From Patescibacteria group bacterium (GTDB lineage: Bacteria; Patescibacteriota; Patescibacteriia; Magasanikbacterales; GWA2-37-8): a DNA stretch of 64,000 bases. This document shows positions 5,104-42,480 of this stretch, piece by piece. The stretch lies in contig JAQTYG010000001.1 of assembly GCA_028688375.1 (NCBI GenBank), positions 183,420 to 247,419 of the forward strand, written 5' to 3'. The notes under the pieces were generated by a model that was not told the origin of the DNA, did no database searches, and worked only from the letters and a program-made list of their open reading frames with translations. How positions within the stretch are numbered: the stretch's first letter is position 1; every line of letters starts with the position of its first letter. A program made the translations under genes and the position numbers.

Positions 5104-5122
5104 TTTGAGTGGCTCAAATAAA

Positions 5123-6193: not shown

Positions 6194-6194
6194 A

Positions 6195-7977: not shown

Positions 7978-7981
7978 AAAG

Positions 7982-8884: not shown

Positions 8885-8893
8885 ATAATAAAA

Positions 8894-9778: not shown

Positions 9779-9831
9779 AAATATTATAAAATTGATTGCA
9801 TAAATTTCGAAAAATGACCATTATGATAAAT

Positions 9832-11784: not shown

Positions 11785-11801
11785 AGTTTAACTTGCGCAA
11801 T

Positions 11802-13115: not shown

Positions 13116-13123
13116 ATTATTTA

Positions 13124-14928: not shown

Positions 14929-14930
14929 AA

Positions 14931-15743: not shown

Positions 15744-15759
15744 AATTTAAAATACCATG

Positions 15760-16833: not shown

Positions 16834-16843
16834 ATTATTTATA

Positions 16844-17635
16844 CTAATCCCAAATTTTCCAAAAAGGGTCCTTATGCCAATGTTCGTTCATTTCCTCAAC
16901 TTCTTTATGCGTATCCATGCACTTCCATTTTCCGTCATGACAAAAGACAGATAATTGGCCGGATTTAGCCAGTTTTGGGAATACGCTTTCAATCATGCTA
17001 TCCGGTTCGATCATATCCAATACCTCTCGCTTAAAAACCATAAAACCGCCGTTAATCAAATTTTTTTCCGCGGAGGGCTCCTCTTCAGCGGTTACTTTAT
17101 GTTGAGAAAAATCAACCACTTTCTTGGCCTCACGATCGATATCTAAATAGCCAAAACGGCTAGCCGGTCGAACCGCAGTTATGGTGGCAATAGTATTTTG
17201 GTTTTGATGAAATTTTACTAATTCGGGTATATTTACATCCGCCACCCCATCCCCATAAGTAACCATAAAATAATCGTCGGAGCCGATATAGTTTTTTAAA
17301 CGTCTAATTCTTTCACCGGTTAAACTATCCGTACCGGTTTCAGCGAACACTATCCTAAAGTCATCGCAATCATTGTTGTGGAATGTCGTAGCGCCGGTTT
17401 TAGTATCAAGTGTAAAATCGTTCACAAATGCCCGCCAGTTCAAAAAATAATCTTTAATCATGTTGCTCTTGTAGCCGAGCGCTAAAATAAAATCATTAAA
17501 GCCGTAATGCGCGTATATCTTCATGATATGCCAAAGGATCGGCTTTCCGCCGACTTCCACCAAAGGCTTGGGTTTAAATTCCGTTTCCTCCTTCATACGA
17601 GTGCCCGTGCCGCCACAAAGTATAATGGTTTTCAT
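16844..17635 (-). CDS. rfbF: Glucose-1-phosphate cytidylyltransferase
   Basis: MKTIILCGGTGTRMKEETEFKPKPLVEVGGKPILWHIMKIY is the hallmark RfbF/DdhA N-terminus; 263 aa. Confidence 0.8.
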   Translation of the reverse strand: MKTIILCGGTGTRMKEETEFKPKPLVEVGGKPILWHIMKIYAHYGFNDFILALGYKSNMIKDYFLNWRAFVNDFTLDTKTGATTFHNNDCDDFRIVFAETGTDSLTGERIRRLKNYIGSDDYFMVTYGDGVADVNIPELVKFHQNQNTIATITAVRPASRFGYLDIDREAKKVVDFSQHKVTAEEEPSAEKNLINGGFMVFKREVLDMIEPDSMIESVFPKLAKSGQLSVFCHDGKWKCMDTHKEVEEMNEHWHKDPFWKIWD

Positions 17636-18516
17636 ATGATAGATAACTTCTTTTTAATAAATAAATTAATATTTTTTATCATTATGATCAAGCCAATGAG
17701 CGCTCTGTTGAATACGAATAATGTGCTTGTTCTTTGGTGCAAATATTTTATTTTTAAATTATCCAAATGCGTATAGCTCAACCTTAATTGCCAAATATAC
17801 TGTTCTGAAGAACGGTTGTTCTCGCCATGATACAAATCTAACGGCTGAATCTTGACTTCATTATTAAAATATTTTCTAAAAAATATATTTACTAGAGTCA
17901 TATCGTGTCGAAAAATCTCGCAATCTCTACTAAATATATTTTTATCCTTACCTTTATTTCTCCACTGATCGTTTGGTGAAAAACCAAGAGCCAGGCCCGC
18001 TCGAGCTGAATCGTAAATTTTTTTAAATATTTCGCTAATCCTGGGAGTGTTTTTAAAACCAATTATGCCCGCGTGAACTACAGTTAGACCATCATACCGT
18101 TCATCCAAATCAAAAATCGATTTATAACTGGTTGGCACAATTTTTTTAAACAATTGTTCTTGATCAATCAAAAGCACGTCTTCCTGTTCAATGACGGAGA
18201 AAACCTCGTCTAATGATCTTAAAACTTGGCACCCAGCATCGAGATAAAAATTTAACCGCGCTAAAGGATGGGCAAAAATATAGGCCTTCCAAGTATAGCA
18301 GCCTCGCCAATGATGGCAAAATTCCGGCATTTTTACTACCTTGACATTATCAACCGACTCAAGTTCTCGGCGAAAAATCGGCAATAAGCCGAGGTCATAA
18401 ACAAAAATAGTCGGGTGATTCGGATAAATCAATTTTATCGAGGATAACAAATTTATTACTGAGGGAAAAAATTTGTTTGAAGCAGAAGTTATAATCGCTT
18501 TTTCTAACATAAACAA
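17632..18516 (-). CDS. Hypothetical protein, possibly a nucleotide-diphospho-sugar transferase-like glycosyltransferase
   Basis: ATGA overlap with rfbF start (translational coupling); no confident motif. Confidence 0.3.
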   Translation of the reverse strand: MFMLEKAIITSASNKFFPSVINLLSSIKLIYPNHPTIFVYDLGLLPIFRRELESVDNVKVVKMPEFCHHWRGCYTWKAYIFAHPLARLNFYLDAGCQVLRSLDEVFSVIEQEDVLLIDQEQLFKKIVPTSYKSIFDLDERYDGLTVVHAGIIGFKNTPRISEIFKKIYDSARAGLALGFSPNDQWRNKGKDKNIFSRDCEIFRHDMTLVNIFFRKYFNNEVKIQPLDLYHGENNRSSEQYIWQLRLSYTHLDNLKIKYLHQRTSTLFVFNRALIGLIIMIKNINLFIKKKLSII

Positions 18517-18526
18517 TTTTTTAGAA

Positions 18527-19873
18527 TTACTTGAAAAACATCCCTCTCAAAATTAAAACGCCCTGTCTCCGTGTTGATTTAAATAAAAGGGCGCAAAAAG
18601 GAATGAGGGAATAAGAAATCAGAGTGGCAAAAGCCGCGCCGTTAATCCCGAACCGGGGAATGAAAATAAAATTCAATACAATATTAATCGTCATGCCCAG
18701 TAAATTTATTAAAAAAGATATTTTTGTCTTTTTTTCTCCGATTAAAGCCTGGTTAAGGACCGTGCTTATCGCCACGGCGATGCCGGCCCAAACATAAATC
18801 GACAGAACCGCGGCAGCGGATAAATAATTTTGACCGTAAGCGATTTGGATGATTATTTTAGAAAATAGCGCCATCGGTACCACAAAAATTAAAGACAGAT
18901 AAAACGCTAAACCATATAATCGAGAGAGTCTTTCCTCGTATCTTTCATGGCTAACTGCAACCGCGTTAAGCACCGCTGGAAAAATCGATCCGACGATAAT
19001 AGTGGGAAAAAAATACCATAATTCTGATAAGCGAACCGCCACATCGTAAAATCCGACCGCCGCATTGTCTAAAAGATGTTTGATCATCACCTGATCGATT
19101 CTGGAAAAAATACCCGCGAAGGCAGAGGAAAAAATTAACGGCCAAGAATGCGCTAACAAATCTTTACAGGTTTGTCCGGAAAATTTCCAACTAAATTGAC
19201 CTAATTTATTTCCAACAAAGATAATTACATAGCCTATGGCGTAAAAAACGCTTTCTAAAAAGAAAATGGCGACAAAATAAATCAAATCAAATTTTAAATA
19301 AACGCAGAAAATTTTAAGTGCGGACAAAACCAGACTAACAACTAAGGAGGTGATCACCACCGGTTTGGAAAAAACTTTGGCTTGAAAAAAAGTATTGATT
19401 ATGCCGAAAGACTGAAAGATAAAAGACAAGGAGACGATAAAAATCAAAAAATTAGTATAAAAATCATTGTGATTAAATAAAAAAGTAATTAAAACCAAAA
19501 CGATAGTTAGACAGGCGCCCATTATTTTAAGAACAAAAGCGGACCCCATCAATTCTTTCTTTTTCTCCGGCTCTTTAATTAAATCAACATACAGTATGGC
19601 TTCAATCCCCAAGCCGGCTAAAAAAGAAAATAGGCCAACATAACTAATGACATAACTTACCAAACCATATTTATCCGGACCCAAAGAGCGCACGATATAT
19701 ATATTTACCAAAAAAGCCACGGCGCTAGCCAAAACTTTACCAATCAGATTCCAACCGCTATTAGAAAAATAGCGTTTTAAACCCTGCGATCTCAATTCGA
19801 ATAACCAGCTTTCCGGTAAAAAAAAGCGCGCTATTTTTTTAACAAGTAATTTAATTGGCTTGACAATATTCAT
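18527..19873 (-). CDS. Polysaccharide biosynthesis protein / Wzx-like flippase (MOP superfamily)
   Basis: 448 aa with about 12 TM helices, N-terminal KR-rich cytoplasmic segment; typical Wzx architecture and cluster context. Confidence 0.6.
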   Translation of the reverse strand: MNIVKPIKLLVKKIARFFLPESWLFELRSQGLKRYFSNSGWNLIGKVLASAVAFLVNIYIVRSLGPDKYGLVSYVISYVGLFSFLAGLGIEAILYVDLIKEPEKKKELMGSAFVLKIMGACLTIVLVLITFLFNHNDFYTNFLIFIVSLSFIFQSFGIINTFFQAKVFSKPVVITSLVVSLVLSALKIFCVYLKFDLIYFVAIFFLESVFYAIGYVIIFVGNKLGQFSWKFSGQTCKDLLAHSWPLIFSSAFAGIFSRIDQVMIKHLLDNAAVGFYDVAVRLSELWYFFPTIIVGSIFPAVLNAVAVSHERYEERLSRLYGLAFYLSLIFVVPMALFSKIIIQIAYGQNYLSAAAVLSIYVWAGIAVAISTVLNQALIGEKKTKISFLINLLGMTINIVLNFIFIPRFGINGAAFATLISYSLIPFCALLFKSTRRQGVLILRGMFFK

Positions 19874-19889
19874 AAATATTTTCCACGAT

Positions 19890-20825
19890 TCACTTTTGTT
19901 GTTTTAAAAAATATTCAATGGTTTTCTTTAAACCGTCTTCAAAATTAACAACCGGTTGCCACCCTAAGTACATTTTGGCTTTGGTGTTATCCAGCCGATT
20001 ACGCAACATCTCGCCGGGTCTATCCGGATTATATTCCGGGACAGCCTCGGGCTTCCCTAACAAGTCGGCGATTTTTTTATATAAAACATTCAGACTAATT
20101 TCATTGCTGTTGCCTAAATTAAATATCGGAATAATTTTCTCATCGCTCTCATAATCTAAAGCCAATAAATTAGCTCTTATCACGTCCCCGACATAAGTAT
20201 AATCTCTAGTCTTGGTGCCGTCGCCATAAATAGCCGCTCTCTTCCCGACATTAATAGACCGGATGTAATCAGCCATCGCGCCTCCCGTTTGACGCGGACC
20301 AAAAATGGTGGCAAATCTAAAAATTACGCAATTTAGCCCAAAAACATGACTATAAAATTGGACATAATTTTCTACGGCAAATTTTGAAATGATATATGGG
20401 TTATCCGGCATCACGGGCTCTGTTTCTTTGGTCGGTAAATTATTGGTGTTGCCATAAACAAAACCGGTGGAAGAAAAAATCACCTTCTTGGCTCCATACT
20501 GTTTTGAAAACTCCAGAGTTTTCAAACTACCCGTGATGCTACGAGAATCAAATATCGGATCTTCTACAGATTTTGGCACATTGGTATTGAAACCGAACAT
20601 ATACACAATCTCCGGCCGTTCTTTTTTAAAAACGTCTTCAAAATTTGGGTCATTCATATCTAATTCGTAAAACTCGGCTTTCAAATTTATGTTTTCGCGC
20701 TTGCCGGTGCTCAAATTATCAACCACGACGACTTTCGCTCCTTTCTCCAACAGAGCGTCTACCAAATGCGAACCGATAAATCCGGCTCCTCCGGTAACTA
20801 AAATTGTCTTGTTCTCTAAATTCAT
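19890..20825 (-). CDS. NAD-dependent epimerase/dehydratase (GalE/UDP-sugar epimerase-like SDR)
   Basis: ILVTGGAGFIGSHLV Rossmann motif and YIISK catalytic motif; 311 aa. Confidence 0.65.
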   Translation of the reverse strand: MNLENKTILVTGGAGFIGSHLVDALLEKGAKVVVVDNLSTGKRENINLKAEFYELDMNDPNFEDVFKKERPEIVYMFGFNTNVPKSVEDPIFDSRSITGSLKTLEFSKQYGAKKVIFSSTGFVYGNTNNLPTKETEPVMPDNPYIISKFAVENYVQFYSHVFGLNCVIFRFATIFGPRQTGGAMADYIRSINVGKRAAIYGDGTKTRDYTYVGDVIRANLLALDYESDEKIIPIFNLGNSNEISLNVLYKKIADLLGKPEAVPEYNPDRPGEMLRNRLDNTKAKMYLGWQPVVNFEDGLKKTIEYFLKQQK

Positions 20826-20827
20826 AA

Positions 20828-21487
20828 TTATTTTTTTCTAAACACTGACAATGAATCCTGAACTTCTAAAAATTCTAACGCCGGACTATTTTTTAATTCA
20901 GCAACTAACTTAATCGGTCCGGGCCAACCAATGAACCCGCCCGGTATAGTGGATGTCACCGGCGCGGAATCGTGAAAAGCCACCGTACCGCCTGACTGTA
21001 ATAAAGGAAACCATTGTAAAAAATCCTGTCTAACCGCTTCGTAGGTATGATCGCCATCGATAAAAATAAAATCGAATGGCTGTCGCCAGTTTTTCACCAC
21101 ATTAAAACTATAATCTTTAAAAAAATAAAATTTCGGATAAAAATTTAGGTTTTGCTTTATTTTTTCTTCATTTCCGATTAACCTCTCGTTCATACTGTCT
21201 GGAATAATCGGGTCAATTCCGTAAATGGGCGCTTGGGCCACTTTCGCCATTTCACGGGTGGTTAGGCCATCTAAAACACCTACCTCTACGATACCCACCC
21301 TCGCAATACAGGCATATTTTTGTAAAGTTTTCACTTCTAAATCAGTACTGAAACGATTGCCTTCTTTCGGGGTTTTGGGGAACAAACCCAGCCTAGTTTT
21401 AACCACATTTTTTATCACATGCGCAAACAGGCGCGGGTTACGCTTTAAAATATCAATTTTGTCTATAATTTTTTCTTTCAAATTCAT
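20828..21487 (-). CDS. Class I SAM-dependent methyltransferase (TylF/CmcI-like O-methyltransferase fold)
   Basis: VGVLDGLTTREMAKV and DFIFIDGDHTYEAVRQDF ... VAFHD resemble macrocin-O-methyltransferase-like family members. Confidence 0.5.
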   Translation of the reverse strand: MNLKEKIIDKIDILKRNPRLFAHVIKNVVKTRLGLFPKTPKEGNRFSTDLEVKTLQKYACIARVGIVEVGVLDGLTTREMAKVAQAPIYGIDPIIPDSMNERLIGNEEKIKQNLNFYPKFYFFKDYSFNVVKNWRQPFDFIFIDGDHTYEAVRQDFLQWFPLLQSGGTVAFHDSAPVTSTIPGGFIGWPGPIKLVAELKNSPALEFLEVQDSLSVFRKK

Positions 21488-21497
21488 AAGCGATTTT

Positions 21498-22565
21498 TTA
21501 ATACAATCTCAGCCGTATCAATATCCATTTCAACGGCAATTTAATGTACTTAGAAATAAAATGAACACCAAAGGCCAAATGTCGTTTTCGATTGGTGTAA
21601 TATTTTTTTATAGCACTTTGCTTTTCTTCGGGCGAAATTGTGATGCCGGGTACTAAAAACGGACGCGATAATTTTAAACGGTAATATTCTTTTGATTCAC
21701 GAAATTGCCCCAAAAATATCTCGTGTTTTTTGTAAAGATAATGTACGTTGCGTGCATAAATTGCTTCAAGTCCCGGAGTACCGGTTGTTTTATTATGCAT
21801 AGTTCCCCATTCAACCTCGGATTGAAATTTTAAGGCGAACACATAATTACGCAATCCCGCCTCAAGACAACGCAATGAAATATCATGACAAGACCAACCA
21901 ACCGGAGCCAACTGTTCATCCATAATTCCAATTTTATTTACGACTTCGCATGATAAGCACTGCGGACTGCCGATCGCCACCATGCGTTCAATCATTTCAT
22001 GCGGCGATAAAGGAATTGGGGACATGCCGGTGCCGTAAGCGCTTTCAATAATATTCCGCTCTTCAATTACCGGCTTTCTGCTTCTAAAATATTCACAAAT
22101 TTCCGGTCTGTCTTTTAAATAAATATTTACTCCGTGTCGGAAACCGAGATAACCAATATTAGAATATCCAAAATGATTATAAATTTTGAAAACCAAATTT
22201 TCCAAATCATAATCTTTTATTATTACATCATCCTGCACAATGATATTACACCCCGGCTCATTCTGCGACGCCGCGCGCAATCCGGCATTAATCTTTCTAA
22301 GTTCATGCACATCGGGAGTCAAAACTTTTGTAATTGGAACTTGGGGGTTCTTTTGAATAATTTCATCTATAATTTTTTCTGTATCATCCGTAGGACGGTC
22401 AAATACCGGATAAATATAACTATTTTCTTTACAACAAGCAAGAACCCCCTCCAAAACTTTGCCGATAAGCTCTTCCTTGTTGTGGATTGTAATAATGTAA
22501 TTAAATCGAAAATTCTTCACATTGATAGATAATAAATATTTTAATTGTGAATTGATATTTACCAA
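21498..22565 (-). CDS. Hypothetical protein, possible GT2-like glycosyltransferase
   Basis: N-terminal pattern YIITIHNKEELIGKVLEGVL...FDRPTDDTEKII resembles GT-A N-termini; weak. Confidence 0.3.
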   Translation of the reverse strand: MVNINSQLKYLLSINVKNFRFNYIITIHNKEELIGKVLEGVLACCKENSYIYPVFDRPTDDTEKIIDEIIQKNPQVPITKVLTPDVHELRKINAGLRAASQNEPGCNIIVQDDVIIKDYDLENLVFKIYNHFGYSNIGYLGFRHGVNIYLKDRPEICEYFRSRKPVIEERNIIESAYGTGMSPIPLSPHEMIERMVAIGSPQCLSCEVVNKIGIMDEQLAPVGWSCHDISLRCLEAGLRNYVFALKFQSEVEWGTMHNKTTGTPGLEAIYARNVHYLYKKHEIFLGQFRESKEYYRLKLSRPFLVPGITISPEEKQSAIKKYYTNRKRHLAFGVHFISKYIKLPLKWILIRLRLY

Positions 22566-22810
22566 TCCTTTGTTTTCTCAATGGTTTTCATTTTAACTTT
22601 TTGATAGATATCTGTGGCCCTCACATCAATTTCCGACGAAAGCATTTTTAATAATTCGTGACCCAAAATACGATATTGCTTACCGATTTTATTTGCCTTG
22701 AGCAGGCCGCTTTTCAACATCCGTTTAACCGTACTTTTACTCACCTTGAGAAGGCGTTCGGTTTCTACCGGTGTATATACTTCATTTGGCTTAATTTCCA
22801 TATTCTGCAA
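22559..22810 (-). CDS. Helix-turn-helix DNA-binding protein (excisionase/MerR-like HTH_17 family)
   Basis: 83 aa; ETERLLKVSKSTVKRMLKSGLLKANKIGKQYRI matches the excisionase-family HTH; embedded in the glycan operon with a 7 nt overlap upstream. Confidence 0.55.
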   Translation of the reverse strand: MQNMEIKPNEVYTPVETERLLKVSKSTVKRMLKSGLLKANKIGKQYRILGHELLKMLSSEIDVRATDIYQKVKMKTIEKTKDW

Positions 22811-22827
22811 TATCTATAATCGCATAT

Positions 22828-23697
22828 TTAAACCATTTGGCCGCGAATAATTGCTAAATTGTGTTCCAAATTATTGAAATTAAAATCAAACTTTTCTACC
22901 GCTAATTTATTAATCGTGGAACAATTCATCGGGCGCTTCGCAATTTGACCGAGCGATTTCGTGCCAACCGGCACGAGCAAATTTTTATCCCAACCAAAAT
23001 AATCACAAATTTTTACGGCGAAATCATATCGTCCGAATATTTCATTGCCAGTAGCGACAAATTTACCGACGACATCACTGGCTATGGCTTTTTTTATTAG
23101 ACGACACAAATCTAGAACAAAAGTCGGATTGCTGATTTGGTCAGTCATTATTCGCATGGCTTTTCCATCTTTCATATTACGATATAATTGCATAAAAAAA
23201 TTCATACCATCCGGGTCCCAGCCGTAAATAACCGTTGGCCTAAATATGATGTAATTTTTTAAAGCGGACACGATTTTTTCCCCTTCAACTTTCGTTTCGC
23301 CGTAATACTGCGCGGGATTAACCGCGTCATTTTCATCATAGCCGCCTTTCTTCCCGTCATAAACGTAATCGGATGAAATGTAAATTATCTTTTTATCGTG
23401 GTGCGCCGACCAAGCGGCCAGTATTTTTGTCGGCAAGACGTTGCACTTGTCCGCGAGCTCTTTTTCCATTTCGCATTTTTCCACATTAGACAAAGCCGCG
23501 AGGTGAACGATGACATCGGGTTGAAAACCATCTAAGATGTTTTTCAGAGCCGCCCTGTCGCTCACGTCAATCACTTTATCCACGAATTCGTTTTTTACGA
23601 TATCTATTCCGCAAATTTCAAAATCCGGCTTCAAAATTGAATAAAGATTTTTGCCGACAAAACCGCCGGAGCCGGTAATTAAAATCTTTTTACTCAT
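22828..23697 (-). CDS. rfbD: dTDP-4-dehydrorhamnose reductase-like (RmlD family SDR)
   Basis: KILITGSGGFVGKNL; 289 aa; adjacent to a cupin 3,5-epimerase. Confidence 0.65.
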   Translation of the reverse strand: MSKKILITGSGGFVGKNLYSILKPDFEICGIDIVKNEFVDKVIDVSDRAALKNILDGFQPDVIVHLAALSNVEKCEMEKELADKCNVLPTKILAAWSAHHDKKIIYISSDYVYDGKKGGYDENDAVNPAQYYGETKVEGEKIVSALKNYIIFRPTVIYGWDPDGMNFFMQLYRNMKDGKAMRIMTDQISNPTFVLDLCRLIKKAIASDVVGKFVATGNEIFGRYDFAVKICDYFGWDKNLLVPVGTKSLGQIAKRPMNCSTINKLAVEKFDFNFNNLEHNLAIIRGQMV

Positions 23698-24217
23698 ATT
23701 TTATTTCCCAGTTATAGGGAATTTCTTTTGAAAACGGGTCCATTCTTTTTATTTCGTCCGGAGAATGGGGATGAGTGGCACAGTTAGCGACAATCGCCTC
23801 TTCAACGCCGATACCTTTGAAACCGTTCCAAACACCTGGCGGAATTGCCACCAAACTATAATTTTTATCACCAATGAATATCACTTGTAATTCGCCTTTA
23901 GTCGAAGAATCTTCCCGCGCGTCAAACAAAACGACTTTGATATTGCCCTTAACCACCGCGTAATTTAACGTCATTTCCGTATGCAGATGCCAACCCTTGA
24001 CTACCCCTGGATATACGGTAGAAAAATACATTTCACCAAATTGCTTAAATTCCGGGTCAGTGACTTTGAGCATATGCATAATGCTGCCACGTTCATCGGC
24101 AATCTTACGCAAAGGTTTAATAATAACTCCGTCTATCATATTTATTGTATTAATGTGATTAAAAGCCCAATAATTTGAATAAAAAATGACACATAGATAG
24201 TCTAACAGAGGTGTCAT
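23690..24217 (-). CDS. rfbC: dTDP-4-dehydrorhamnose 3,5-epimerase-like (RmlC cupin)
   Basis: MIDGVIIKPLRKIADERGS...YFSTVYPGVVKGWHLH matches the RmlC family; true start is probably the internal Met at 24139 (protein starting MIDGV), because the upstream extension is hydrophobic nonsense. Confidence 0.7.
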   Translation of the reverse strand: MTPLLDYLCVIFYSNYWAFNHINTINMIDGVIIKPLRKIADERGSIMHMLKVTDPEFKQFGEMYFSTVYPGVVKGWHLHTEMTLNYAVVKGNIKVVLFDAREDSSTKGELQVIFIGDKNYSLVAIPPGVWNGFKGIGVEEAIVANCATHPHSPDEIKRMDPFSKEIPYNWEIKYE

Positions 24218-33581: not shown

Positions 33582-36110
33582 TTATTGCGCTGTCTGAAAG
33601 TAATGGAAGCTGCGATAATCAGACCAGGGAGTATAGGTTGAATTATTTAATTTGGCGCGCACTCGGAAACGATAGGTGTTATCTGTGCCCGGCGCCCAAT
33701 AGCTGTAAGAATTACTACCGGTGATATAGGTATTAACAAGCGCCCACTGGCTGGAATAACCGTTGCAATAATCGCAGGCCACTTCCACGTCGTAATTTTG
33801 GGCGTTGCTGACCGAATACCAGCCCAGATTAACCGAGCGCGAACTTTGATTGATCGCCGCGTTGTTGGCCGGAGTATAAACTACCGGCGCATTGCCGTAA
33901 GAATTGCCGTTGGAAGAACCGCCGGCGTTAACCGAGAACTCTCGCCAATCAGACCAATTGGAATAAGCGCCATCGGAAAATTTCGTGCGCACGCGCATTC
34001 GATAATTATTATCGTACGAAAAATACATGGTGGCGAAATTGCTCCAGGCGGTCTGGGTGCGTTCCTCATACCAGCCGGTGCCGGATTTGTAATTGACGTT
34101 TATTTCGTAAGAAACAGAATGGCTATCATTTGACCAAGTGGCGTAAACATTGCGGCCGGTAAATGTCTGGCCGGCGTTCGGCATACTGATCAAAGGCGCG
34201 TCATCTAAATGATCATAACCGCCGCCATACGGCCCAACCATAAACTCTCGCCAATCAGACCAATCGCCGTAGGAATTATCCCAAAATTTAGCGCGAGCGC
34301 GCAAACGATAATAACCGTCATTGGTTACGTTGAAATTTAAACTATTTTGGATAGAGCCGTAAATACCGTCAGGCGTGCCATAGACATACCAGGTATTTCC
34401 AGATTTGTAATTAACCTCTACTGCATAAACATAAGCGCTGGGGACAGCGGTCCAACTGGAATAAACGGTGTGGTAGGTTAAGTACTGATCCTCGGTCGGA
34501 TTATATACGGAAATCCCGTTGGAATTGGAATTGTATTTATAATGGAAATAGCGATAATCAGACCAGGTGGTAAAATTGCCATTGCCTAAATTGGCGCGCA
34601 CGCGAAAATGGCACCAGGTATCGTCGCCGTGAACGGCATATAAATTATAGACGGCGCCGAACGGCAAATACGGATAAATAGTTTCAGTGCCATAGCCGTC
34701 GCAAGTCATTTCTATGATGTAACCGGTAACACCGGACACGCCGCTCCAACTTAAAGACACCATGCGACTGCCATTTTCAACCACGGCATTTTGCGCCGGA
34801 GTATAAATTACGGGGGCGGTAGTGTTATTATTGGTGCCGACGGTAAACTCTCGCCAGTCAGACCAATCGCTGTAGACAGAAGTGGTAAAATGGGCGCGGA
34901 CGCGGAAACGATATTTGTTATCGTCGCTAATATTCAGAGTGGGATTAACGTTGTAGACAGAGGTGTTGCTTTTGTTCACCCAAGCGCCATTGGAAAAATA
35001 ATCAAGATCCATTTCATAAGCCTGTGCGCCGGAATTGCTGGTCCAGCTGGCATTCACGAGATGATCATTGAAAACCTGGCCCTGCCACGGCGCGGTGATC
35101 ACCGGCGCGTCGTAATTGTGACTTCCGTTGTCATAATAAAAATGGTTGTATTCGCTCCACCCGCCGTAACTGCCGTTGCGGAAAGCGCGGACGCGGAAAC
35201 TGTATTGGCCAAAAACGCCGGAAGATAAAGTGACAGAAGTGTCGCTCGCGGTAATCGTGTTTTCCACCACCAAAACCCAAAATGAACCATTGTTTCTGGT
35301 CACTTGATATTGGTAAGCGGTGGCGCCGGCCACGACCGACCAATCCAAAGTTACATTATTACTTGTCAAATGGGCTTCATCAGTCGGCAAAAGAAGCGAC
35401 GGGACGGTTAAATCCGTGCCCGAATGCGTATCCACCTTAAAATACCGCCACTCAGACCAGTTGGTGTAGGTGTTGTTGGATAATTGCGCGCGAATTTTCA
35501 CGCGGTAACTGTTATCCCAAATGCCTTCGCCGATCACGTAATTATTGCTGGTTTGATAATCAACAAAATTTTTCCAAACGCCGTTGGAAGAATATTCCAC
35601 CGTAATAAAATAGGTTTGCGCGCTGACGACCGAGTTCCAATGGAAATCCGTGGAGTCCCAATCCATCGTTTGGTTGGCGCCTGGCACGGTAATCACCGGA
35701 GCGGTGGTCACCGGAGTTTGGGCGGAAGTATTAAATCTAAAATATTTATAATCAGACCAGTAACCGGCGGTAGCGCCATCATAAGCGCGGACACGCCAGC
35801 GGAATTGGTTGTCGCCCGGCATGGTTACGGTCAAAGTTCTGGCCGTAGTAGAATAGGTTTTAGCGCCCTGCCATTTGTTGGTTTTGCTGACGCAAACATC
35901 GCAGGTCACTTCCACTTCATACTTGGTGGCGTGGGAGACACTATCCCAGGTGAAGGTGGTTTGACGCGGATAATTAGTCAAGGTTTGATTGGACGCCGGA
36001 GCGGTCAAGTACGGAGCCGATAAAACCGAGGCCTTGGCCGTACCGACAGCAAAAAACGACGCCACAAAAATGACGGCGAGCCAAGCAACGATTTGGGGAT
36101 ATTTACGCAT
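33582..36110 (-). CDS. Secreted/cell-surface protein with about 8 tandem fibronectin type III-like repeats
   Basis: N-terminal signal peptide MRKYPQIVAWLAVIFVASFFAVGTAKA; recurrent about 95 aa units each ending Y/F-RFRVRA ... WSDWREF / WSDYRYF. Confidence 0.7.
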   Translation of the reverse strand: MRKYPQIVAWLAVIFVASFFAVGTAKASVLSAPYLTAPASNQTLTNYPRQTTFTWDSVSHATKYEVEVTCDVCVSKTNKWQGAKTYSTTARTLTVTMPGDNQFRWRVRAYDGATAGYWSDYKYFRFNTSAQTPVTTAPVITVPGANQTMDWDSTDFHWNSVVSAQTYFITVEYSSNGVWKNFVDYQTSNNYVIGEGIWDNSYRVKIRAQLSNNTYTNWSEWRYFKVDTHSGTDLTVPSLLLPTDEAHLTSNNVTLDWSVVAGATAYQYQVTRNNGSFWVLVVENTITASDTSVTLSSGVFGQYSFRVRAFRNGSYGGWSEYNHFYYDNGSHNYDAPVITAPWQGQVFNDHLVNASWTSNSGAQAYEMDLDYFSNGAWVNKSNTSVYNVNPTLNISDDNKYRFRVRAHFTTSVYSDWSDWREFTVGTNNNTTAPVIYTPAQNAVVENGSRMVSLSWSGVSGVTGYIIEMTCDGYGTETIYPYLPFGAVYNLYAVHGDDTWCHFRVRANLGNGNFTTWSDYRYFHYKYNSNSNGISVYNPTEDQYLTYHTVYSSWTAVPSAYVYAVEVNYKSGNTWYVYGTPDGIYGSIQNSLNFNVTNDGYYRLRARAKFWDNSYGDWSDWREFMVGPYGGGYDHLDDAPLISMPNAGQTFTGRNVYATWSNDSHSVSYEINVNYKSGTGWYEERTQTAWSNFATMYFSYDNNYRMRVRTKFSDGAYSNWSDWREFSVNAGGSSNGNSYGNAPVVYTPANNAAINQSSRSVNLGWYSVSNAQNYDVEVACDYCNGYSSQWALVNTYITGSNSYSYWAPGTDNTYRFRVRAKLNNSTYTPWSDYRSFHYFQTAQ

Positions 36111-37115: not shown

Positions 37116-37217
37116 TTTTTAGCTATTATAATCCGCCCGTTTAGGAACGGGCAACGAACATGGCCCGTTCGTCTATCAGTTAGGACACGGCCCTCTCAAG
37201 GCTGAAAGACGGGTGCG

Positions 37218-37236
37218 ATTCCCGTACGGGCTACAA
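37218..37236. repeat. 19 nt direct repeat ATTCCCGTACGGGCTACAA, copy 1 (tRNA-3'-end-like)
   Basis: Identical 19-mer recurs at 37449..37467. Confidence 0.6.
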
Positions 37237-37296: not shown

Positions 37297-37317
37297 CCTG
37301 CCTGCCGGCAGGCAGGC
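37297..37317. repeat. GC-rich palindromic repeat family D (CCTGCCTGCCGGCAGGCAGGC), left flank of the AT-rich defense island
   Basis: 20/21 identical to 42257..42277; core TGCCTGCCGGCAGGCA is a perfect palindrome. Confidence 0.55.
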
Positions 37318-37448: not shown

Positions 37449-37467
37449 ATTCCCGTACGGGCTACAA
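37449..37467. repeat. 19 nt direct repeat ATTCCCGTACGGGCTACAA, copy 2
   Basis: Identical to 37218..37236; preceded by several GC hairpins (GGCGGACTT..AAGTCCGCC, GCCGAGCCGA..TCGGCTCGGC). Confidence 0.6.
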
Positions 37468-37544: not shown

Positions 37545-37925
37545 TTATTTTTTGACAACATTGTCCTTGTTAAACAAAAAACCCACTACTATCAATGCTA
37601 ACCCGATCGTTTTTAAAAAACTCTCTCCAACAAAAAATGGCACAATATAACCTTCGTTAAAGCTCATCCATTTAAATCCTACTGCCACTATAACAAAAAA
37701 ATCAAAAACAACAATTGAAATGATAACCCGTAATAACCAATCAGACCATGTCCTTCTCATGCCCATTATATCCAGTCTTTCGCGAGCCAAAATTTGCGCA
37801 ATTATTTTATCCTGCTCCAGCTGGCTCATTTTCCTTTGTGTTTCTAAATCAGGCCCAACAATATCGTAAGTCGTTTGTTCCTCCAATATCTTTTTGACTT
37901 CCTCAACTGTTACGCGATTTTCCAT
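37545..37925 (-). CDS. Small membrane protein (126 aa, soluble N-terminal domain plus 2 TM helices); holin-like or membrane anchor
   Basis: WLLRVIISIVVFDFFVIVAVGF and LKTIGLALIVVGFLF hydrophobic helices; overlaps the ImmA-like gene by 16 nt. Confidence 0.45.
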   Translation of the reverse strand: MENRVTVEEVKKILEEQTTYDIVGPDLETQRKMSQLEQDKIIAQILARERLDIMGMRRTWSDWLLRVIISIVVFDFFVIVAVGFKWMSFNEGYIVPFFVGESFLKTIGLALIVVGFLFNKDNVVKK

Positions 37926-38506
37926 AAATTCAGCTTCTTCATTCTGAAAGCCATCATTTCATTTGACACTCCGAACATTTTGGCCAGCAGATCAATATCA
38001 TCTTTTGTAATTTTGTATTTATTTATTATTTCTTCAGCCATGTTTTTAGGCACAAGAATATTAGCGGCAAAACAATTAGCCTCTTGCTCTACCGGGCTAT
38101 AATTTCCATTAATGATTGTTTGTCGCAATAACACATTGTAGTCGGAAGGCTTATGTTCCATTTTAAAGTGTCCCAACTCATGTGCTATAGTGAACATCTG
38201 ACGATTTGCTGGGTCGTCATTGTTAACAAAAATTATCTTCTTTTCAATATCTAAGAAACCAGCGACGGATTGAAGCTTCTCGGGCATTTTAATAAAACGC
38301 AATTCCAGCCCCTCGCCTTTGGCAATTTGAAAAACATTAACAACGGGTTCGGTTACACCATATTTTACCAACAAATCATTGGCTAATTCTTCACATTTTG
38401 GAAAATTTGCCTCGCCCATATAATAATGGTTAATTTTTACTTCTGCTGTTGGTAGTATAGCACAATAAAGAAATTTTGACGATTTTAAATTTTTCTTTAT
38501 GCACAA
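37910..38506 (-). CDS. ImmA/IrrE family zinc metallo-endopeptidase (DUF955)
   Basis: HEXXH motif FTIAHELGHFKMEH plus downstream EQEANCFAANILVP are typical of ImmA/IrrE; real start is probably the internal MGEANFP. Confidence 0.65.
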   Translation of the reverse strand: MCIKKNLKSSKFLYCAILPTAEVKINHYYMGEANFPKCEELANDLLVKYGVTEPVVNVFQIAKGEGLELRFIKMPEKLQSVAGFLDIEKKIIFVNNDDPANRQMFTIAHELGHFKMEHKPSDYNVLLRQTIINGNYSPVEQEANCFAANILVPKNMAEEIINKYKITKDDIDLLAKMFGVSNEMMAFRMKKLNLWKIA

Positions 38507-39289
38507 TCAAGTAAAATCTATAAATTTAGCCTGGTATTTATCCTTCCACTGACTTTTAGAGATAACCCTCTCAGAATAAACACCGGGAGGCGGCCAGTTC
38601 ACCTCCGAAATTTTAATACTACCATCTTGGTACACCTCTTCTACAAACGCAACATGACCTACTGCAGGATTTTTTAAACTTCCGACGAACGACATGGCAC
38701 AACCGGCCTTTGGTTCTTCCAGAATCCTGTACTGGGCACTTCTTTGAAAAATCCCTGCCCATAAGCCCCCATTACGCGGTCTTTCTGCTGGCCATTTGAT
38801 AGTGATGCCCATTTGCTGAATTTTATAATGAACATACTCTACGCACTGAAGATCGTCTCTTCGTGCTCCTCCACCAAACTCATCATTAATAATTTTGCGT
38901 AATTTTATGGAATTTGCATCAGTCGCGAGATTTTTTTCGTGATTATGAAAAGCTGGCACGACATCCTGAAATACTTCTTTTTTCTGCAAATTTTCCAATG
39001 CGATTGGAACGACTTCTACTAAATAAAATTTAGAAACCCAGCCGTTTTTCCCATCAGCATTGACCCTAAACCAGTCGCCATTTTCTTCAACAGCCTCAAC
39101 CTTAGTACTAAAAGCGAGTTTTGCGATAATATTATCGTTGTTAATCTTTTCCGGGCTGGAACGCATGCGTAACCCATCGGAAGCACTGACAAATAACTCT
39201 TTAGTGGAAAATTGTGGAGTTATATCTGCTACATTTGTTTTTTCTTCGAAGTCAAACGTTTGATTGCACTTAGGACAAGTTATCGGCAT
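38507..39289 (-). CDS. Zinc-ribbon - SH3-like - CHAP domain protein (putative peptidoglycan amidase/endopeptidase; endolysin-like, no signal peptide)
   Basis: N-terminal CPKCNQTF zinc ribbon; NGDWFRVNADGKNGWVSKFYL SH3b-like; C-terminal QCVEYVHYKI ... GHVAFVEEV consistent with CHAP Cys/His catalytic residues. Confidence 0.55.
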   Translation of the reverse strand: MPITCPKCNQTFDFEEKTNVADITPQFSTKELFVSASDGLRMRSSPEKINNDNIIAKLAFSTKVEAVEENGDWFRVNADGKNGWVSKFYLVEVVPIALENLQKKEVFQDVVPAFHNHEKNLATDANSIKLRKIINDEFGGGARRDDLQCVEYVHYKIQQMGITIKWPAERPRNGGLWAGIFQRSAQYRILEEPKAGCAMSFVGSLKNPAVGHVAFVEEVYQDGSIKISEVNWPPPGVYSERVISKSQWKDKYQAKFIDFT

Positions 39290-39335
39290 ATAATATTTTC
39301 GGGTTATTTATAATATCATTATACTAGAAAGAATC

Positions 39336-40427
39336 TTATTTTCCAGATTTGGTTCGATTATCTTGCTTACACAACATTTGGCAATTCTCGGCAACAGTTT
39401 TACCACCCTCGTGCCACGGCTTTATATGGTCGGCTTCCATTTCTTCTATTTCAAAACGCTTCTTGCATTTTTTACAAATTCCTTTTTGCCTCTCATACGC
39501 TTCGCGCTTCATTTTGTCCGTAAAAGCACGAATCGAAAGAAATTTTTCTTGTCCCGTTAAAACATACGGGTAAATACCGGATTTTTTTGTAACATCTTCA
39601 TCTTGCATTAACTCTTTGATCTCGGCTTCAAGTTTACCGGCGTTCAATTTCCTATCTTTGAATTGATTATACAGTTCACCCCATTGCACGCCACTCATTT
39701 CTCGGCGATAATTTGTAAAAATTTTACGCACCCACGCAATCACGTCTTGAAAATACTGCCACAATGCTTCCGCATCCTTTTTATTTTGATGTTTGGCCAT
39801 GTAATCTTCTATCTTGCCGTCGTTAATCCACGAAAGTGCTGTTTCTAAATACTCCTGGCGAATTGGCGAGCCGTTAACTAATTGCCCGCCGTCGTTCGCT
39901 AACAAATATGCCGCGCAATTTGATTTGCTGAATTTAAGTTTGGCGTCAGAGAGCCATGGCCCGGTATATACCGCGTTGCGTATTTCTTGGTCAGTCAATT
40001 TTTCACCGGCAATATTAATAATTCTAAACCAGTCCAGTCGTTCTTTGTCTGTACCCTCGCAGAAATATATCATCAGTTCATAATCCAAAATCTGTTTTTG
40101 TTCTTCGTTGGTCAAGTTGTGAAAAAAACGATCATTCAGCGAAAAATCGCCATTAATATATTGCCCGATACTAATGGTGCGCTGTTGGCCGTCCAAAACT
40201 TCGAAATTTCCTTGGTCGGTCTTGACCCAGTACATCACATTAAGCGGAAAGCTATTTTTAATCGTTTCAAGCACGGCATCCCGCTGTTTGCCGGTATAAA
40301 CAAATTCGCGCTGATATTTGGGGCGGATATCCAGCTTACCGCCATACGCGACCACGCCTTCTTCGGCGCTGTCTTTGTAACCAACGACCACTTTACGCAC
40401 CGAAATTTTATGTAATTCAATTTTCAT
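39336..40427 (-). CDS. DUF262 (ParB/GmrSD N-terminal-like) - HNH endonuclease fusion protein; candidate restriction/defense nuclease
   Basis: VLDGQQRT (DGQQR signature of DUF262); C-terminal CKKCKKRFEIEEMEADHIKPWHEGGKTVAENCQMLCKQDNRTK HNH motif. Confidence 0.7.
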   Translation of the reverse strand: MKIELHKISVRKVVVGYKDSAEEGVVAYGGKLDIRPKYQREFVYTGKQRDAVLETIKNSFPLNVMYWVKTDQGNFEVLDGQQRTISIGQYINGDFSLNDRFFHNLTNEEQKQILDYELMIYFCEGTDKERLDWFRIINIAGEKLTDQEIRNAVYTGPWLSDAKLKFSKSNCAAYLLANDGGQLVNGSPIRQEYLETALSWINDGKIEDYMAKHQNKKDAEALWQYFQDVIAWVRKIFTNYRREMSGVQWGELYNQFKDRKLNAGKLEAEIKELMQDEDVTKKSGIYPYVLTGQEKFLSIRAFTDKMKREAYERQKGICKKCKKRFEIEEMEADHIKPWHEGGKTVAENCQMLCKQDNRTKSGK

Positions 40428-40428
40428 A

Positions 40429-41382
40429 TTATTTTTTTACTTTCTTATTTTTAACTAAAATTCTAAAATATGTAAATTTCCCATTTATTGACAGGTCTTT
40501 ATCATCATCGCCCTTACGAAACTTCACAATTTCAAACTGGTCCGGATTATATTTATCAATAAAAGTTATCGGCACACCAATAACGCCGTTATAATCATAG
40601 GGAATATCCGTATATTTGTCTACGTTGATTGCATCATAATTATCATAATGTGGATATTCCTCGGGGTTGTATTTTTTATATAATGTTATAAATTCCTTAT
40701 GCTTTTCAACCTCAAGGCTTGTGAACCAACACGAAGTTGAAACTCGCGCGATTTTCTTACCGTTCTCATCAATATGGTGAAACAATTCCCAATCGTCTGG
40801 CACCATAAAGAACATACCGACGTTAAAATTGGTGTAACCTGTTCGAATTTTGTCTTCTTTGAATAACTTAAAAATTTCTTTATAAGTTATCGCATTGGTA
40901 TTGCCGATAATCAAAAACCTCTTATCGTACTCCATCAGCTGCGCCATATACTCACGAAATAGTGAAAATGGCGGGTTTGTTACTATGATGTCAGCTTGTT
41001 TGAGAAGGTCAATACATTCCTTGCTTCGGAAATCGCCGTCGCTTATCATTTCGGTCATAAATTCATCCGGGTCGGGCATGCGATTACCATTTTTATCCCC
41101 AGCGTATTCCAATTTATAAGGTTTTTTATTGGTAAATAAAGTTGCGCCTTTGAAATGGGTGGCAATCAATTTCTTCAATCCTAAATGTTCAAAATTTCTA
41201 CTGAAATATTTAACAAAGTTACTTTCTCTCGGGTCATCGCAATTACAAAATACCACCTTTCCTCGAAACTGATCTTTATAATGCTTGATTTCATTTTCAA
41301 TATCGGCAAGCTGGGTATAAAACTCGTCTTTCTTTTCTTTACTTGCCTTATGCAAACTTTTATTTGATGATTTAGTTACCAT
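40429..41382 (-). CDS. N6-adenine DNA methyltransferase of the M.EcoRI family
   Basis: KDEFYTQLADIENEIKHYKDQFRGKVVFCNCDDPRESNFVKYF and IIVTNPPFSLFREY (NPPF catalytic motif) closely parallel M.EcoRI-family methylases; 317 aa; 1 nt gap to the downstream gene and 2 nt to the upstream gene. Confidence 0.7.
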   Translation of the reverse strand: MVTKSSNKSLHKASKEKKDEFYTQLADIENEIKHYKDQFRGKVVFCNCDDPRESNFVKYFSRNFEHLGLKKLIATHFKGATLFTNKKPYKLEYAGDKNGNRMPDPDEFMTEMISDGDFRSKECIDLLKQADIIVTNPPFSLFREYMAQLMEYDKRFLIIGNTNAITYKEIFKLFKEDKIRTGYTNFNVGMFFMVPDDWELFHHIDENGKKIARVSTSCWFTSLEVEKHKEFITLYKKYNPEEYPHYDNYDAINVDKYTDIPYDYNGVIGVPITFIDKYNPDQFEIVKFRKGDDDKDLSINGKFTYFRILVKNKKVKK

Positions 41383-41384
41383 AA

Positions 41385-42134
41385 TTATCTTCTTGTTATC
41401 AAGTCATACGCCAAGCTGGCGAGTGATATATAATGAATTGCTAAATTTTTATCCAAATCTTGAGCGGGAGTATGCGCTTTTTCATTCCGCAAAAATTGGA
41501 TGGACATATGTAAAAATTTTACTCCCTCAAAAAAATCTTTTTCCGCGTCATTTTTCGGTTTCCGCCCAAAAATTATTTCTTGGTTCGATTCCGCAAACGC
41601 CTCGTGCGCTTTTTCTTTGCCGGTAATATCTCTGAGCTTTTGACGAACGATTTTATACGCTTCTTCTACGGCGTTAAAATAATGCCCACTATTCAGAAAT
41701 TTTTGAACATGGTCAAAAACTTCTTTTTGCAAAATTATATTGATATTACCGTTCTTAAAGGTGGCTTGGGATATATTTTCAACTTTCACTTTTACCCCAA
41801 GAAGTTTTTCGCCAATGTTTTTAGCGGCGGTCATTCTGTCGGCTGGAAAATCATCTCGTTTCAAATTATCCAATAAAATCTGATTTTCAATATATTCAAT
41901 GAGTTTCAAAATACTTTTTCCAACGATTTTATCGTCTGCGTTCGTCCATAGGCCACGGAGACGATTTGCTTTTGAACCGCTGGCATAATTGTACCTTTGA
42001 TTGTAAATATCAATGCCGATGTCATCTCTAAAAAATTCACCCATTGTTCGGTCGGAAAAATTCAAAACATAACCACTGCCCATCTGGAGTAGTTTTTCAA
42101 GTGTCTGTTTTTCGAGTGTAGTCAGTTCTGCCAT
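41385..42134 (-). CDS. HEPN domain protein (TIGR02391/Swt1-like, Rx4-6H motif); Abi-like RNase candidate
   Basis: C-terminal FLRNEKAHTP provides the HEPN R-x4-H motif; first gene of the three-gene operon; sigma70-like promoter (TTGCGA-16/17-TAGAAT) immediately upstream at about 42140..42175. Confidence 0.55.
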   Translation of the reverse strand: MAELTTLEKQTLEKLLQMGSGYVLNFSDRTMGEFFRDDIGIDIYNQRYNYASGSKANRLRGLWTNADDKIVGKSILKLIEYIENQILLDNLKRDDFPADRMTAAKNIGEKLLGVKVKVENISQATFKNGNINIILQKEVFDHVQKFLNSGHYFNAVEEAYKIVRQKLRDITGKEKAHEAFAESNQEIIFGRKPKNDAEKDFFEGVKFLHMSIQFLRNEKAHTPAQDLDKNLAIHYISLASLAYDLITRR

Positions 42135-42139
42135 AATCT

Positions 42140-42480
42140 TATTCTATTCTATACTTATTAGAAAGATTCGCAATATATTTCTGGATTCCCGCCAGAGTTT
42201 ATCCTCGCGAAAGCGGGGGCGGGAATGACAGGGCTTCGCCGCGACCTCACCCCAGCCCTGCCTACCGGCAGGCAGGCCTCTCCTTATCAAGGAGAGGGGC
42301 GCCGGAGGGATTCCTCCACTACGGTCGGAATGACAGGACTTCCCCTCGCCCCCTCTTTATATAAGAGGGGGAAAGATCCTTCGCTTCGCTCAGGATGACA
42401 AGTGGCGGGAATGACAGGGTGACGAGAAGATCCTTCTCTCCGCTCAGGGTGACACCGCAAATTGCGGTGTCACTTTCTCT
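42140..42480. repeat. Repeat-dense intergenic region: at least five REP-like elements (families A, B, D plus the CTCTCCTTATCAAGGAGAGG hairpin and the GTGACACCGC-AAATT-GCGGTGTCAC hairpin)
   Basis: Family A at 42180..42232, D at 42257..42277, B-type at 42371..42400 and 42424..42454, perfect 10 bp hairpin at 42451..42473. Confidence 0.6.
42257..42277. repeat. GC-rich palindromic repeat family D (CCTGCCTACCGGCAGGCAGGC), right flank of the defense island
   Basis: 20/21 identical to 37297..37317. Confidence 0.55.

Follow-up and report, generated by a model that had tools for sequence, protein, structure and literature searches.

We consider three consecutive genes on the minus strand of a 64-kilobase (kb) stretch of a Patescibacteria genome (contig JAQTYG010000001.1; this whole stretch is referred to as the window). 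They encode a protein with an SH3b and a CHAP domain, an ImmA/IrrE-like metallopeptidase of the M78 family and a small protein with two transmembrane (TM) helices, and they lie at the 3' end of an island that carries a type II restriction-modification operon. The initial annotation of this DNA, made from its letters, took the three as one lysis-like module beside the operon. Comparison with related loci leads us to another arrangement, in which two independent cassettes stand side by side at the island's 3' end: a CHAP gene that is a probable accessory of restriction systems, and a pair formed by the ImmA-like peptidase and the two-TM protein. We assign this reading a probability of about 0.55.

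The island (37545-42134, minus strand) has six co-oriented genes on one strand, and the three of interest are the last to be transcribed. The three consecutive minus-strand open reading frames (ORFs) named at the outset (38507-39289, 37910-38506 and 37545-37925) are all present, the second of them in a version with a TTG start that is revised below. The genes of the island and two of its spacers are, in the order of transcription:

41385..42134, minus strand: Hypoth_Ymh/TIGR02391 protein, the operon's first gene (TIGR02391 1.5e-29; Pfam Hypoth_Ymh 8.1e-17)
40429..41382, minus strand: EcoRI-family N6-adenine DNA methyltransferase (Pfam EcoRI_methylase 1.4e-123; PADLOC MTase_II 6.5e-120)
39336..40427, minus strand: type II restriction endonuclease with DUF262/GmrSD_N and HNH domains (PADLOC REase_II 1.5e-136 over the full length; Pfam GmrSD_N 3e-16, HNH 2.3e-12)
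39290..39335, minus strand: spacer of 46 nucleotides (nt) from the endonuclease stop to the CHAP start, most of it covered by a promoter-like site
38507..39289, minus strand: SH3b-CHAP protein, 260 amino acids (aa), the operon's terminal gene (Pfam CHAP, SH3_3)
38420..38506, minus strand: spacer of 87 nt from the CHAP stop to the ATG of the ImmA-like gene, with an extended -10 promoter-like site
37910..38419, minus strand: M78 metallopeptidase, 169 aa (Pfam Peptidase_M78); a TTG at 38506 would make 198 aa
37545..37925, minus strand: two-TM protein, 126 aa (hydropathy), overlapping the ImmA-like gene by 16 nt

The host operon is a type II restriction-modification system in which the cognate methyltransferase and the endonuclease are both present and both matched by PADLOC. 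An internal promoter had been suspected at 39290..39335, and a promoter-like site is indeed found there (TGGAAA-16-TATAAT at 39345..39318, 10 of 12 positions, a consensus match only); no terminator-like site was found in the 46-nt spacer between the endonuclease and CHAP genes.

The SH3b-CHAP protein

The 260-aa protein matches Pfam CHAP (PF05257) at 4.7e-13, with 49.9 bits against a cut-off of 26, and SH3_3 at 2.4e-8, above its cut-off, in agreement with the domains first proposed for it. On alignment its catalytic residues are intact, namely C149 (in QCVEYV), H212 (GHVAFVE) and E229/N231 (SEVNW), and across 32 aligned relatives the cysteine is nearly invariant and the histidine, glutamate and asparagine are invariant. 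The AlphaFold2 model built from this 32-sequence alignment has a mean predicted local distance difference test (pLDDT) score of 89, and Foldseek gives it a probability of 1.0 against 5t1q, 9eum, 2k3a, 4olk and 4csh; its best neighbours in the PDB are staphylococcal amidase and phage CHAP domains (the phi812 hub, LysK, LysGH15) and bacterial SH3 domains. A hydrophobic leader is absent from the window protein and from all 32 aligned family members, as had been noticed for the window protein, and for this reason the cytoplasmic location can be regarded as a conserved trait of the family. The protein is a predicted leaderless SH3b-CHAP cysteine amidase/peptidase.

The zinc ribbon that had been placed ahead of these domains has to be given up. 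A full ribbon with two CxxC/CxxH knuckles was not found in the window protein, which has a single CxxC (C5, C8), and the Zn_ribbon_4 match stays below threshold (E=0.008, 16.5 bits against a cut-off of 30.3) with profile positions 1-17 of 36 aligned. A distant member of the family, P0087, does have CxxC...CxxC. Most members carry the SH3b fusion, and two further fusions are seen, CHAP-TIR in P0077 and Amidase_3-CHAP in P0088. Against PHROG, the window protein gives an amidase match of 8.9e-4 on its SH3 part. A search of PADLOC-DB v2 with the CHAP and two-TM proteins returns no family at E<=0.01, and a known defence system is rejected on this ground. We also note a conserved N-terminal extension of about 130 aa in P0018, P0033 and P0034 (L005:6001-7185), for which neither Pfam nor PADLOC has a match.

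The CHAP family in restriction and CBASS operons

The homology search with the CHAP protein gives 89 clusters; most are of Patescibacteria, and Omnitrophota and further metagenome-assembled genomes contribute some. To compare gene contexts, 14 genomic and 57 metagenomic loci were taken, their ORFs called, and the set reduced to 52 non-redundant loci. Here the CHAP gene recurs as a discrete cassette that closes, or is inserted in, restriction-modification operons of several types (I, II, IIG and III) and two operons of the cyclic-oligonucleotide-based antiphage signalling system (CBASS). The initial annotation had set the CHAP gene next to a defence operon; the association stands, and it is closer than adjacency, because the gene belongs with the operon and is a recurrent part of such operons.

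The arrangements differ from locus to locus. In the type I loci L060 and L052 the order is HsdM - DUF3800 - CHAP - HsdS ... HsdR, with CHAP overlapping hsdS by 4 nt, and in L031 the CHAP gene comes after HsdR-HsdM-HsdS. Type III Mod/Res genes stand with a 73-aa ORF, a 344-aa ORF and CHAP in L003, and Mod, WYL, NYN and Res genes with a 157-aa ORF and CHAP in L005. LexA-methyltransferase fusions occur with DUF3644 and CHAP in L001 (Eco57I type), with HNH and further along a CHAP-TIR fusion in L007, and with BsaWI in L009, where they are divergent from CHAP; L008, like L003 and L005 a type III locus, has Res, an M78 protein with a helix-turn-helix (HTH) and CHAP. One CBASS locus (L016:5234-8801) reads SAVED effector - SMODS - E2-like - CHAP, with the E2 matched by PADLOC at 3.9e-53, and the CHAP gene takes the position where type II CBASS usually holds a JAB isopeptidase. 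The other (L055:2353-4399) has CHAP 16 nt after a SMODS/AGS_C gene.

The association can be put in numbers. Of the 228 genes that stand no more than three genes from CHAP, 34 belong to the restriction-modification cluster, whereas the 312 more distant genes of these loci include 6 (odds ratio 8.9, p=1.3e-8 by Fisher's test), and 24 of the 49 loci with two or more neighbours have at least one such gene in the nearer range; these counts rest on cluster membership and spot Pfam checks and not on per-gene annotation, because the methyltransferase BLAST cluster ("c1") also took in stand-alone LexA-like proteins through the LexA-methyltransferase fusions. Each stand-alone LexA-like gene so counted adjoins a methyltransferase. 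A LexA-like gene, free or fused, is within three genes of CHAP in 11 loci and directly upstream and divergent in 6, with intergenic distances of 6-123 nt. The Pfam models most often found in the three upstream genes are LexA_DNA_bind/Peptidase_S24 (10), N6_Mtase (6), ResIII (6), SWI2_SNF2 (5) and Eco57I (5), and the downstream neighbours include Methylase_S, HEPN_AbiV and NotI. The LexA-like neighbours, together with XRE/M78 ones, suggest control of a DNA-damage type in many relatives of the CHAP gene.

Two observations from these loci deserve a place of their own. Methyltransferases N-terminally fused to a complete module of LexA DNA-binding domain and self-cleaving S24 peptidase, with GDSM/GNSM motifs, are encoded at L001:2989-4920 (minus strand), L007:1730-3163, L009/L037:6399-7844 (minus strand) and L014:6312-7877 (minus strand); in other loci a free LexA-like gene stands immediately before the methyltransferase. 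These arrangements suggest restriction systems under SOS-type proteolytic control. The second is a conserved gene pair (73-87 aa and 344-355 aa) that adjoins CHAP, on one side or the other, in L003/L034:6607-7907, L009/L037:8754-10012, L035, L036 and L073. No Pfam or PADLOC match was obtained for the 73-aa and 344-aa proteins, nor for the 157-aa ORF of L005 and a 480-aa ORF of L025.

The pair of ImmA-like peptidase and two-TM protein

The middle protein is a clear member of its family (Pfam Peptidase_M78 7.3e-21, 74.7 bits against a cut-off of 22), and its translation has HELGH, the HExxH motif noticed at the outset, with an E..AN.FA motif downstream. The NCBI annotation (P0099) gives it 169 aa, its homologues have 165-171 aa, and the homologues form 353 clusters, of which those listed are mostly of 160-175 aa. 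From the NCBI and homologue lengths it follows that translation starts with the ATG of position 38419 rather than the TTG of 38506, and that the 0-nt gap from CHAP in the initial annotation, which depends on the TTG, becomes a spacer; the ImmA-like gene most likely starts 87 nt past the CHAP stop. Within this spacer, at 38482..38454, is an extended -10 promoter-like site (TCGTCA-17-TATACT with TG).

PADLOC matches of the peptidase are to generic M78 models, i.e., CapP (the best, 5.1e-27, confined to its catalytic part, profile positions 4-154 of 242), PDC-M69B and RmrA. Neither an HTH nor a GAF domain was found in the window M78 protein. An XRE or HTH gene beside the M78 gene was found neither in the window, as the initial annotation had it, nor in the related loci L121, L125, L127, L128 and L129.

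Two hydrophobic helices (residues 60-89 and 94-118) stand out in the 126-aa protein; they bear out the two TM helices first proposed and are kept in its homologues. The protein also has an N-terminal helix predicted to be cytoplasmic and a charged C-terminal tail. Its AlphaFold2 model is a helical hairpin with a mean pLDDT of 68, too weak for a fold search, and no model of Pfam, NCBIfam, PHROG or PADLOC matched. Close homologues are few; a profile search finds 495 representatives (E<=1e-3). Partners that are 33-42% identical retain MRxxWSxWLL at the border of the membrane, FD in helix 1 and ES..K..GLA in helix 2, the last being part of a family motif that reads ES..K..GLA.IVV.FLFNK in full. 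A segment ER.DI..MR..WS of the protein is also conserved. The TM family was not found in the IMG/VR viral contigs.

A 165-171-aa M78 gene directly precedes the TM gene in all seven contexts that have upstream DNA. The 16-nt overlap between the two genes in the window is real, and other pairs overlap by 22-31 nt, with one case of a 20-nt separation. In at least five contexts the pair stands without CHAP. L121/L122 have it between pheT and a gene of DsbA type, L127 downstream of rbfA and L128 next to an enzyme that resembles MmeI; in L129 it separates genes for a CoA-transferase and a thioredoxin, and L125/L126 provide a further context. The ImmA-like and two-TM genes thus appear, from their arrangement, as a translationally coupled, widespread and self-standing cassette.

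Loci with all three genes and the boundary between the cassettes

We turn now to the loci in which CHAP and the pair occur together. These are the window and one close relative (L024/L025) only; none of the remaining 50 non-redundant CHAP loci has the combination. The relative aligns by blastn at 79-85% nt identity from the methyltransferase through to 17 nt beyond the TM gene, and the block of three genes common to both covers 1766 nt at 84.8% identity. Homology of L025 begins at 41385, which leaves out the Ymh gene, and the island occupies different chromosomal positions in the two. A small HTH gene replaces the Ymh gene in the relative, and the 480-aa ORF mentioned above lies as an extra gene between its endonuclease and CHAP (L024/L025:6478-7920).

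Three other close relatives (L010, L027 and L001) share DNA homology with the window over the CHAP gene alone, from 39299/39310 to 38474/38506 by blastn, with a different upstream gene in each. The homology ends about 0-33 nt beyond the CHAP stop, and this cassette boundary precedes the promoter-like site of the ImmA-like gene. The adjacency of the ImmA-like gene to CHAP is, on the loci compared, a property of the window lineage only.

A proposed role for each cassette

For CHAP, what is observed is an intact catalytic triad in a CHAP fold, the lack of a leader, the limits of the cassette and the enrichment of its context. The role is inferred by analogy: we regard the gene as a probable restriction-linked lysis or suicide accessory, PrrC-like in its logic. 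The hydrolase would be kept inside the cell, harmless in the cytoplasm until it is induced or given access to a substrate, which could be murein after membrane damage or cytoplasmic muropeptide precursors, and the outcome would be lysis or growth arrest. For the second cassette, the TM protein rather than a repressor would be the partner or substrate of the peptidase, which may act on, or be held by, the cytoplasmic N-terminal segment; the pair could work as a toxin-antitoxin-like unit or as a protease-gated membrane effector. In the window lineage only, the two cassettes might work together, the TM protein then serving as a holin, although the comparative data do not require so.

One may go further and see in the SH3b-CHAP proteins an unrecognised class of cell-wall-directed guardians serving all restriction types and CBASS, with a promoter that in many genomes they would have in common with a self-cleaving LexA-like (or XRE/M78) repressor, and in the HTH-less pair a new membrane toxin module. 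DNA damage or failed restriction would then trigger lysis from within. We hold this joint proposal as tentative and rather doubtful.

Several points weigh against two cassettes with a restriction-linked CHAP accessory. The function of the CHAP family is read from gene context alone, and in about half of the non-redundant loci no gene up to three positions from CHAP is recognised as a restriction gene; cut contigs or genes without annotation are frequent among these loci. Serine or tyrosine recombinases lie within a few kb on several CHAP islands (L001, L003, L008, L009), and the association could therefore be with mobile islands generally and not with defence. How a murein hydrolase without a leader would get to its substrate is not obvious, and a holin-like gene is missing from most loci. 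Serine replaces the catalytic cysteine in 2 of the 32 family members. The window's own locus is without a LexA-like gene, and the regulatory inference drawn from the relatives does not carry over to it directly. In three independent lineages CHAP has an M78 gene no more than three genes away, which leaves room for some functional link between M78 proteases and CHAP.

Alternative explanations

CHAP could be general cargo of small islands, serving wall remodelling for DNA transfer or uptake, or fratricide that releases DNA, with the restriction link arising through common elements; both cassettes as passive cargo would make the locus an ordinary type II restriction island with passengers. The serine recombinases or integrase within a few kb in L001, L003, L008 and L009 speak for it, as does the different position of the island on the window and L025 chromosomes, and pneumococcal CbpD, with CHAP and SH3b, is a fratricide lysin. 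Such cargo is hard to reconcile, however, with a gene embedded in type I hsd operons and overlapping hsdS by 4 nt, with promoter regions of 6-123 nt shared between divergent LexA-methyltransferase and CHAP genes, and with an enrichment that drops beyond three genes in the same loci, and a fratricide lysin would need the export signal that these proteins do not have. We consider this explanation unlikely.

Another possibility is that CHAP is an intracellular isopeptidase (a deconjugating enzyme like the Cap3 of CBASS) or a protease with phage or defence proteins as its targets, and not a murein hydrolase. The papain-like fold of the NlpC/P60-CHAP superfamily is catalytically versatile, the cytoplasmic location is conserved in the family, the CHAP-TIR fusion P0077 exists, and in L016 the CHAP gene directly follows the E2-like gene of a SAVED-SMODS-E2 operon. 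This E2 adjacency is seen at one locus only, though, whereas most members are fused to an SH3b of the cell-wall-binding type, the Amidase_3-CHAP fusion P0088 has a classic two-domain lysin architecture, and the closest structures are all murein hydrolases. An enzyme of this kind is quite unlikely here.

We then come back to the module of the initial annotation, in which a CHAP endolysin, a two-TM holin and an ImmA gate would form one protease-gated lysis or abortive-infection system. Parts of that proposal have held: the domains apart from the zinc ribbon, the leaderless CHAP and the defence setting are as described, the three genes are contiguous, co-oriented and co-inherited with L024/L025, the TM protein has the size, the two helices and the charged C-terminal tail of a holin, and a leaderless CHAP needs a way across the membrane. 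M78 genes are also neighbours of CHAP in L054 and L068/L069, but there the M78 proteins (L054 and L068) are paired with or fused to an XRE/HTH protein and have no TM protein as partner. What does not hold is the unity of the three, since they occur together in one lineage among the 52 loci, the pair lives elsewhere without CHAP in at least five contexts, the CHAP boundary falls before the promoter-like site of the ImmA-like gene, and the TM family is missing from the viral contigs searched. The TM gene is coupled to the ImmA-like gene and not to the lysin, and it adjoins CHAP only in the window and L024/L025. A single module is improbable on these grounds, and conceivable for the window lineage only.

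A prophage lysis-cassette remnant (endolysin and holin) beside the restriction operon, also proposed at the outset, is very improbable and is rejected: the nearest CHAP structures and GenBank phage matches are indeed staphylococcal phage lysins, the PHROG amidase match falls on the SH3 part and the island adjoins a tRNA gene and an att-like repeat, but the flanks (of which about 8 kb and 4.5 kb were scanned) hold housekeeping genes (MgsA/RarA, a Mur ligase, a PBP transpeptidase and a radical-SAM protein) and no phage structural, terminase or integrase gene, the family's neighbours are restriction and CBASS genes, the window genes do not lie among late genes as a phage holin and endolysin do, and a search of 2.9 million IMG/VR contigs gave no close or full-length relative (best 39%, CHAP domain only), nor did tblastn against 50,697 GenBank phages (35-37% over 45% of the query, in staphylococcal tail lysins).

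The island and its flanks

The island of 4.6 kb has a guanine plus cytosine (GC) content of about 37% (0.36-0.40) against about 50% (0.46-0.54) in its flanks, and it is horizontally acquired, beside a tRNA-Glu gene in a Patescibacteria genome. Proteins identical to those of the window are on deposit from a Patescibacteria metagenome-assembled genome. The features at its borders are:

37162..37234, plus strand: tRNA-Glu(CTC) at the island border (ARAGORN; Rfam tRNA 50.9 bits)
37449..37467, plus strand: 19-nt exact repeat of the tRNA-Glu 3' end (37218-37236), ATTCCCGTACGGGCTACAA (repeat search of the window)
37297..37316 and 42257..42276, no strand assigned: two copies of a 20-nt GC-rich palindrome, CCTGCCTGCCGGCAGGCAGG, one on each side of the island

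The tRNA-end repeat lies 231 nt past the original and 78 nt before the island's first gene, is the sole second copy in the window (chance expectation 0), and looks like an att-type integration scar. A third copy was not found at the island's far side, and bounding of the island by att repeats is not established. The palindrome has only its two copies in the window (chance expectation 0), and comparison of the two flanks found no common sequence beyond these 20 nt. In the intergenic flanks Rfam gave the tRNA only as structured RNA.

Three other observations concern the surroundings. The GC-rich segment between the Ymh gene and murF (42180-42460) contains short repeats, GGAATGACAGG three times and AAGATCCTTC..GCTCAGG.TGACA twice, that resemble miniature repeat elements. 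At 33582-36110, on the minus strand, is a gene for an 842-aa protein with a signal-like N-terminus and about 8 tandem modules of about 100 aa, in which a W..V..A..Y...RVRA motif recurs and for which Pfam has a weak Ig-like match only. The GC content from about 5000 to 24000 of the window (0.34-0.43) is below that of its right half, and this part may be another acquired region.

Comparison with known systems

We compare the two cassettes with the systems that they resemble. The endolysins LysK and LysGH15 with their holins resemble the window locus in the CHAP fold, the catalytic triad and the SH3b; signal peptides are lacking in both, and both have a small two-TM protein close by. The window protein, however, has the reverse domain order (SH3b before CHAP) and stands in no phage context, and its two-TM neighbour is coupled to ImmA, not to CHAP, and absent from the viral contigs searched. 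Host-encoded murein hydrolases form a second comparison, in which LytA and CbpD of Streptococcus pneumoniae serve programmed lysis; LytA has no signal peptide, and CbpD combines CHAP, SH3b and choline-binding parts. The relation to LytA and CbpD is at the level of domains only, and these two are under competence or autolysis control and are not found in restriction operons.

M78 proteases associate with mobile elements and defence operons, and CapP and IrrE carry an HTH-like linker and a GAF domain (10.1101/2022.04.27.489752). The window protein shares the M78 fold and HExxH with ImmA/ImmR, IrrE/DdrO and CapP/CapH, but is of 169 aa and without the HTH-like linker or GAF, and where the ImmA/ImmR-type pairs have an HTH repressor its adjacent partner is the two-TM protein. 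RosmerTA (RmrT/RmrA) is likewise a two-gene unit with an M78 protein, and PADLOC matches RmrA at 3.3e-15 and weaker. The match falls only in the C-terminal half of RmrA, from about position 125 onward of 357-400, and the part outside the match is the N-terminal one, which we take to hold its HTH; the window M78 protein has no HTH, and its TM partner matches no PADLOC model. The two-gene unit of ImmA-like peptidase and two-TM protein is common, carries no annotation, and makes a good candidate for a toxin-antitoxin or abortive-infection module of a new kind.

The closest comparison for the CHAP gene is with PrrC and RloC. Suicide effectors embedded in restriction-modification loci have a precedent, PrrC in type I loci among them (PMC12707154). 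The likeness is that a gene for a non-restriction effector lies inside or at the end of restriction operons, including the place between hsdM and hsdS, and that the CHAP gene appears as a self-contained add-on moving between different systems. The differences are that PrrC and RloC are anticodon nucleases whereas the window family is a predicted papain-fold CHAP amidase/peptidase with SH3b, and that the CHAP family also accompanies CBASS operons. To our knowledge, restriction-linked suicide effectors have so far been nucleases such as PrrC and RloC, and a murein hydrolase in this role, if true, adds a lysis-from-within logic to restriction immunity. As far as we know, Patescibacteria are largely without CRISPR and rich in restriction systems, and the CHAP accessory, if real, points to a mode of defence in this group. 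The recurrent arrangement of LexA-like, methyltransferase and CHAP genes gives a regulatory hypothesis that can be tested. Full-text searches found no literature in which CHAP proteins are tied to restriction-modification, CBASS, abortive infection, defence islands or the defence of Patescibacteria. Taken one by one, restriction-linked accessories, leaderless lysins and M78 proteases are of known kinds; it is their combinations, as seen in the two cassettes, that have not been described.

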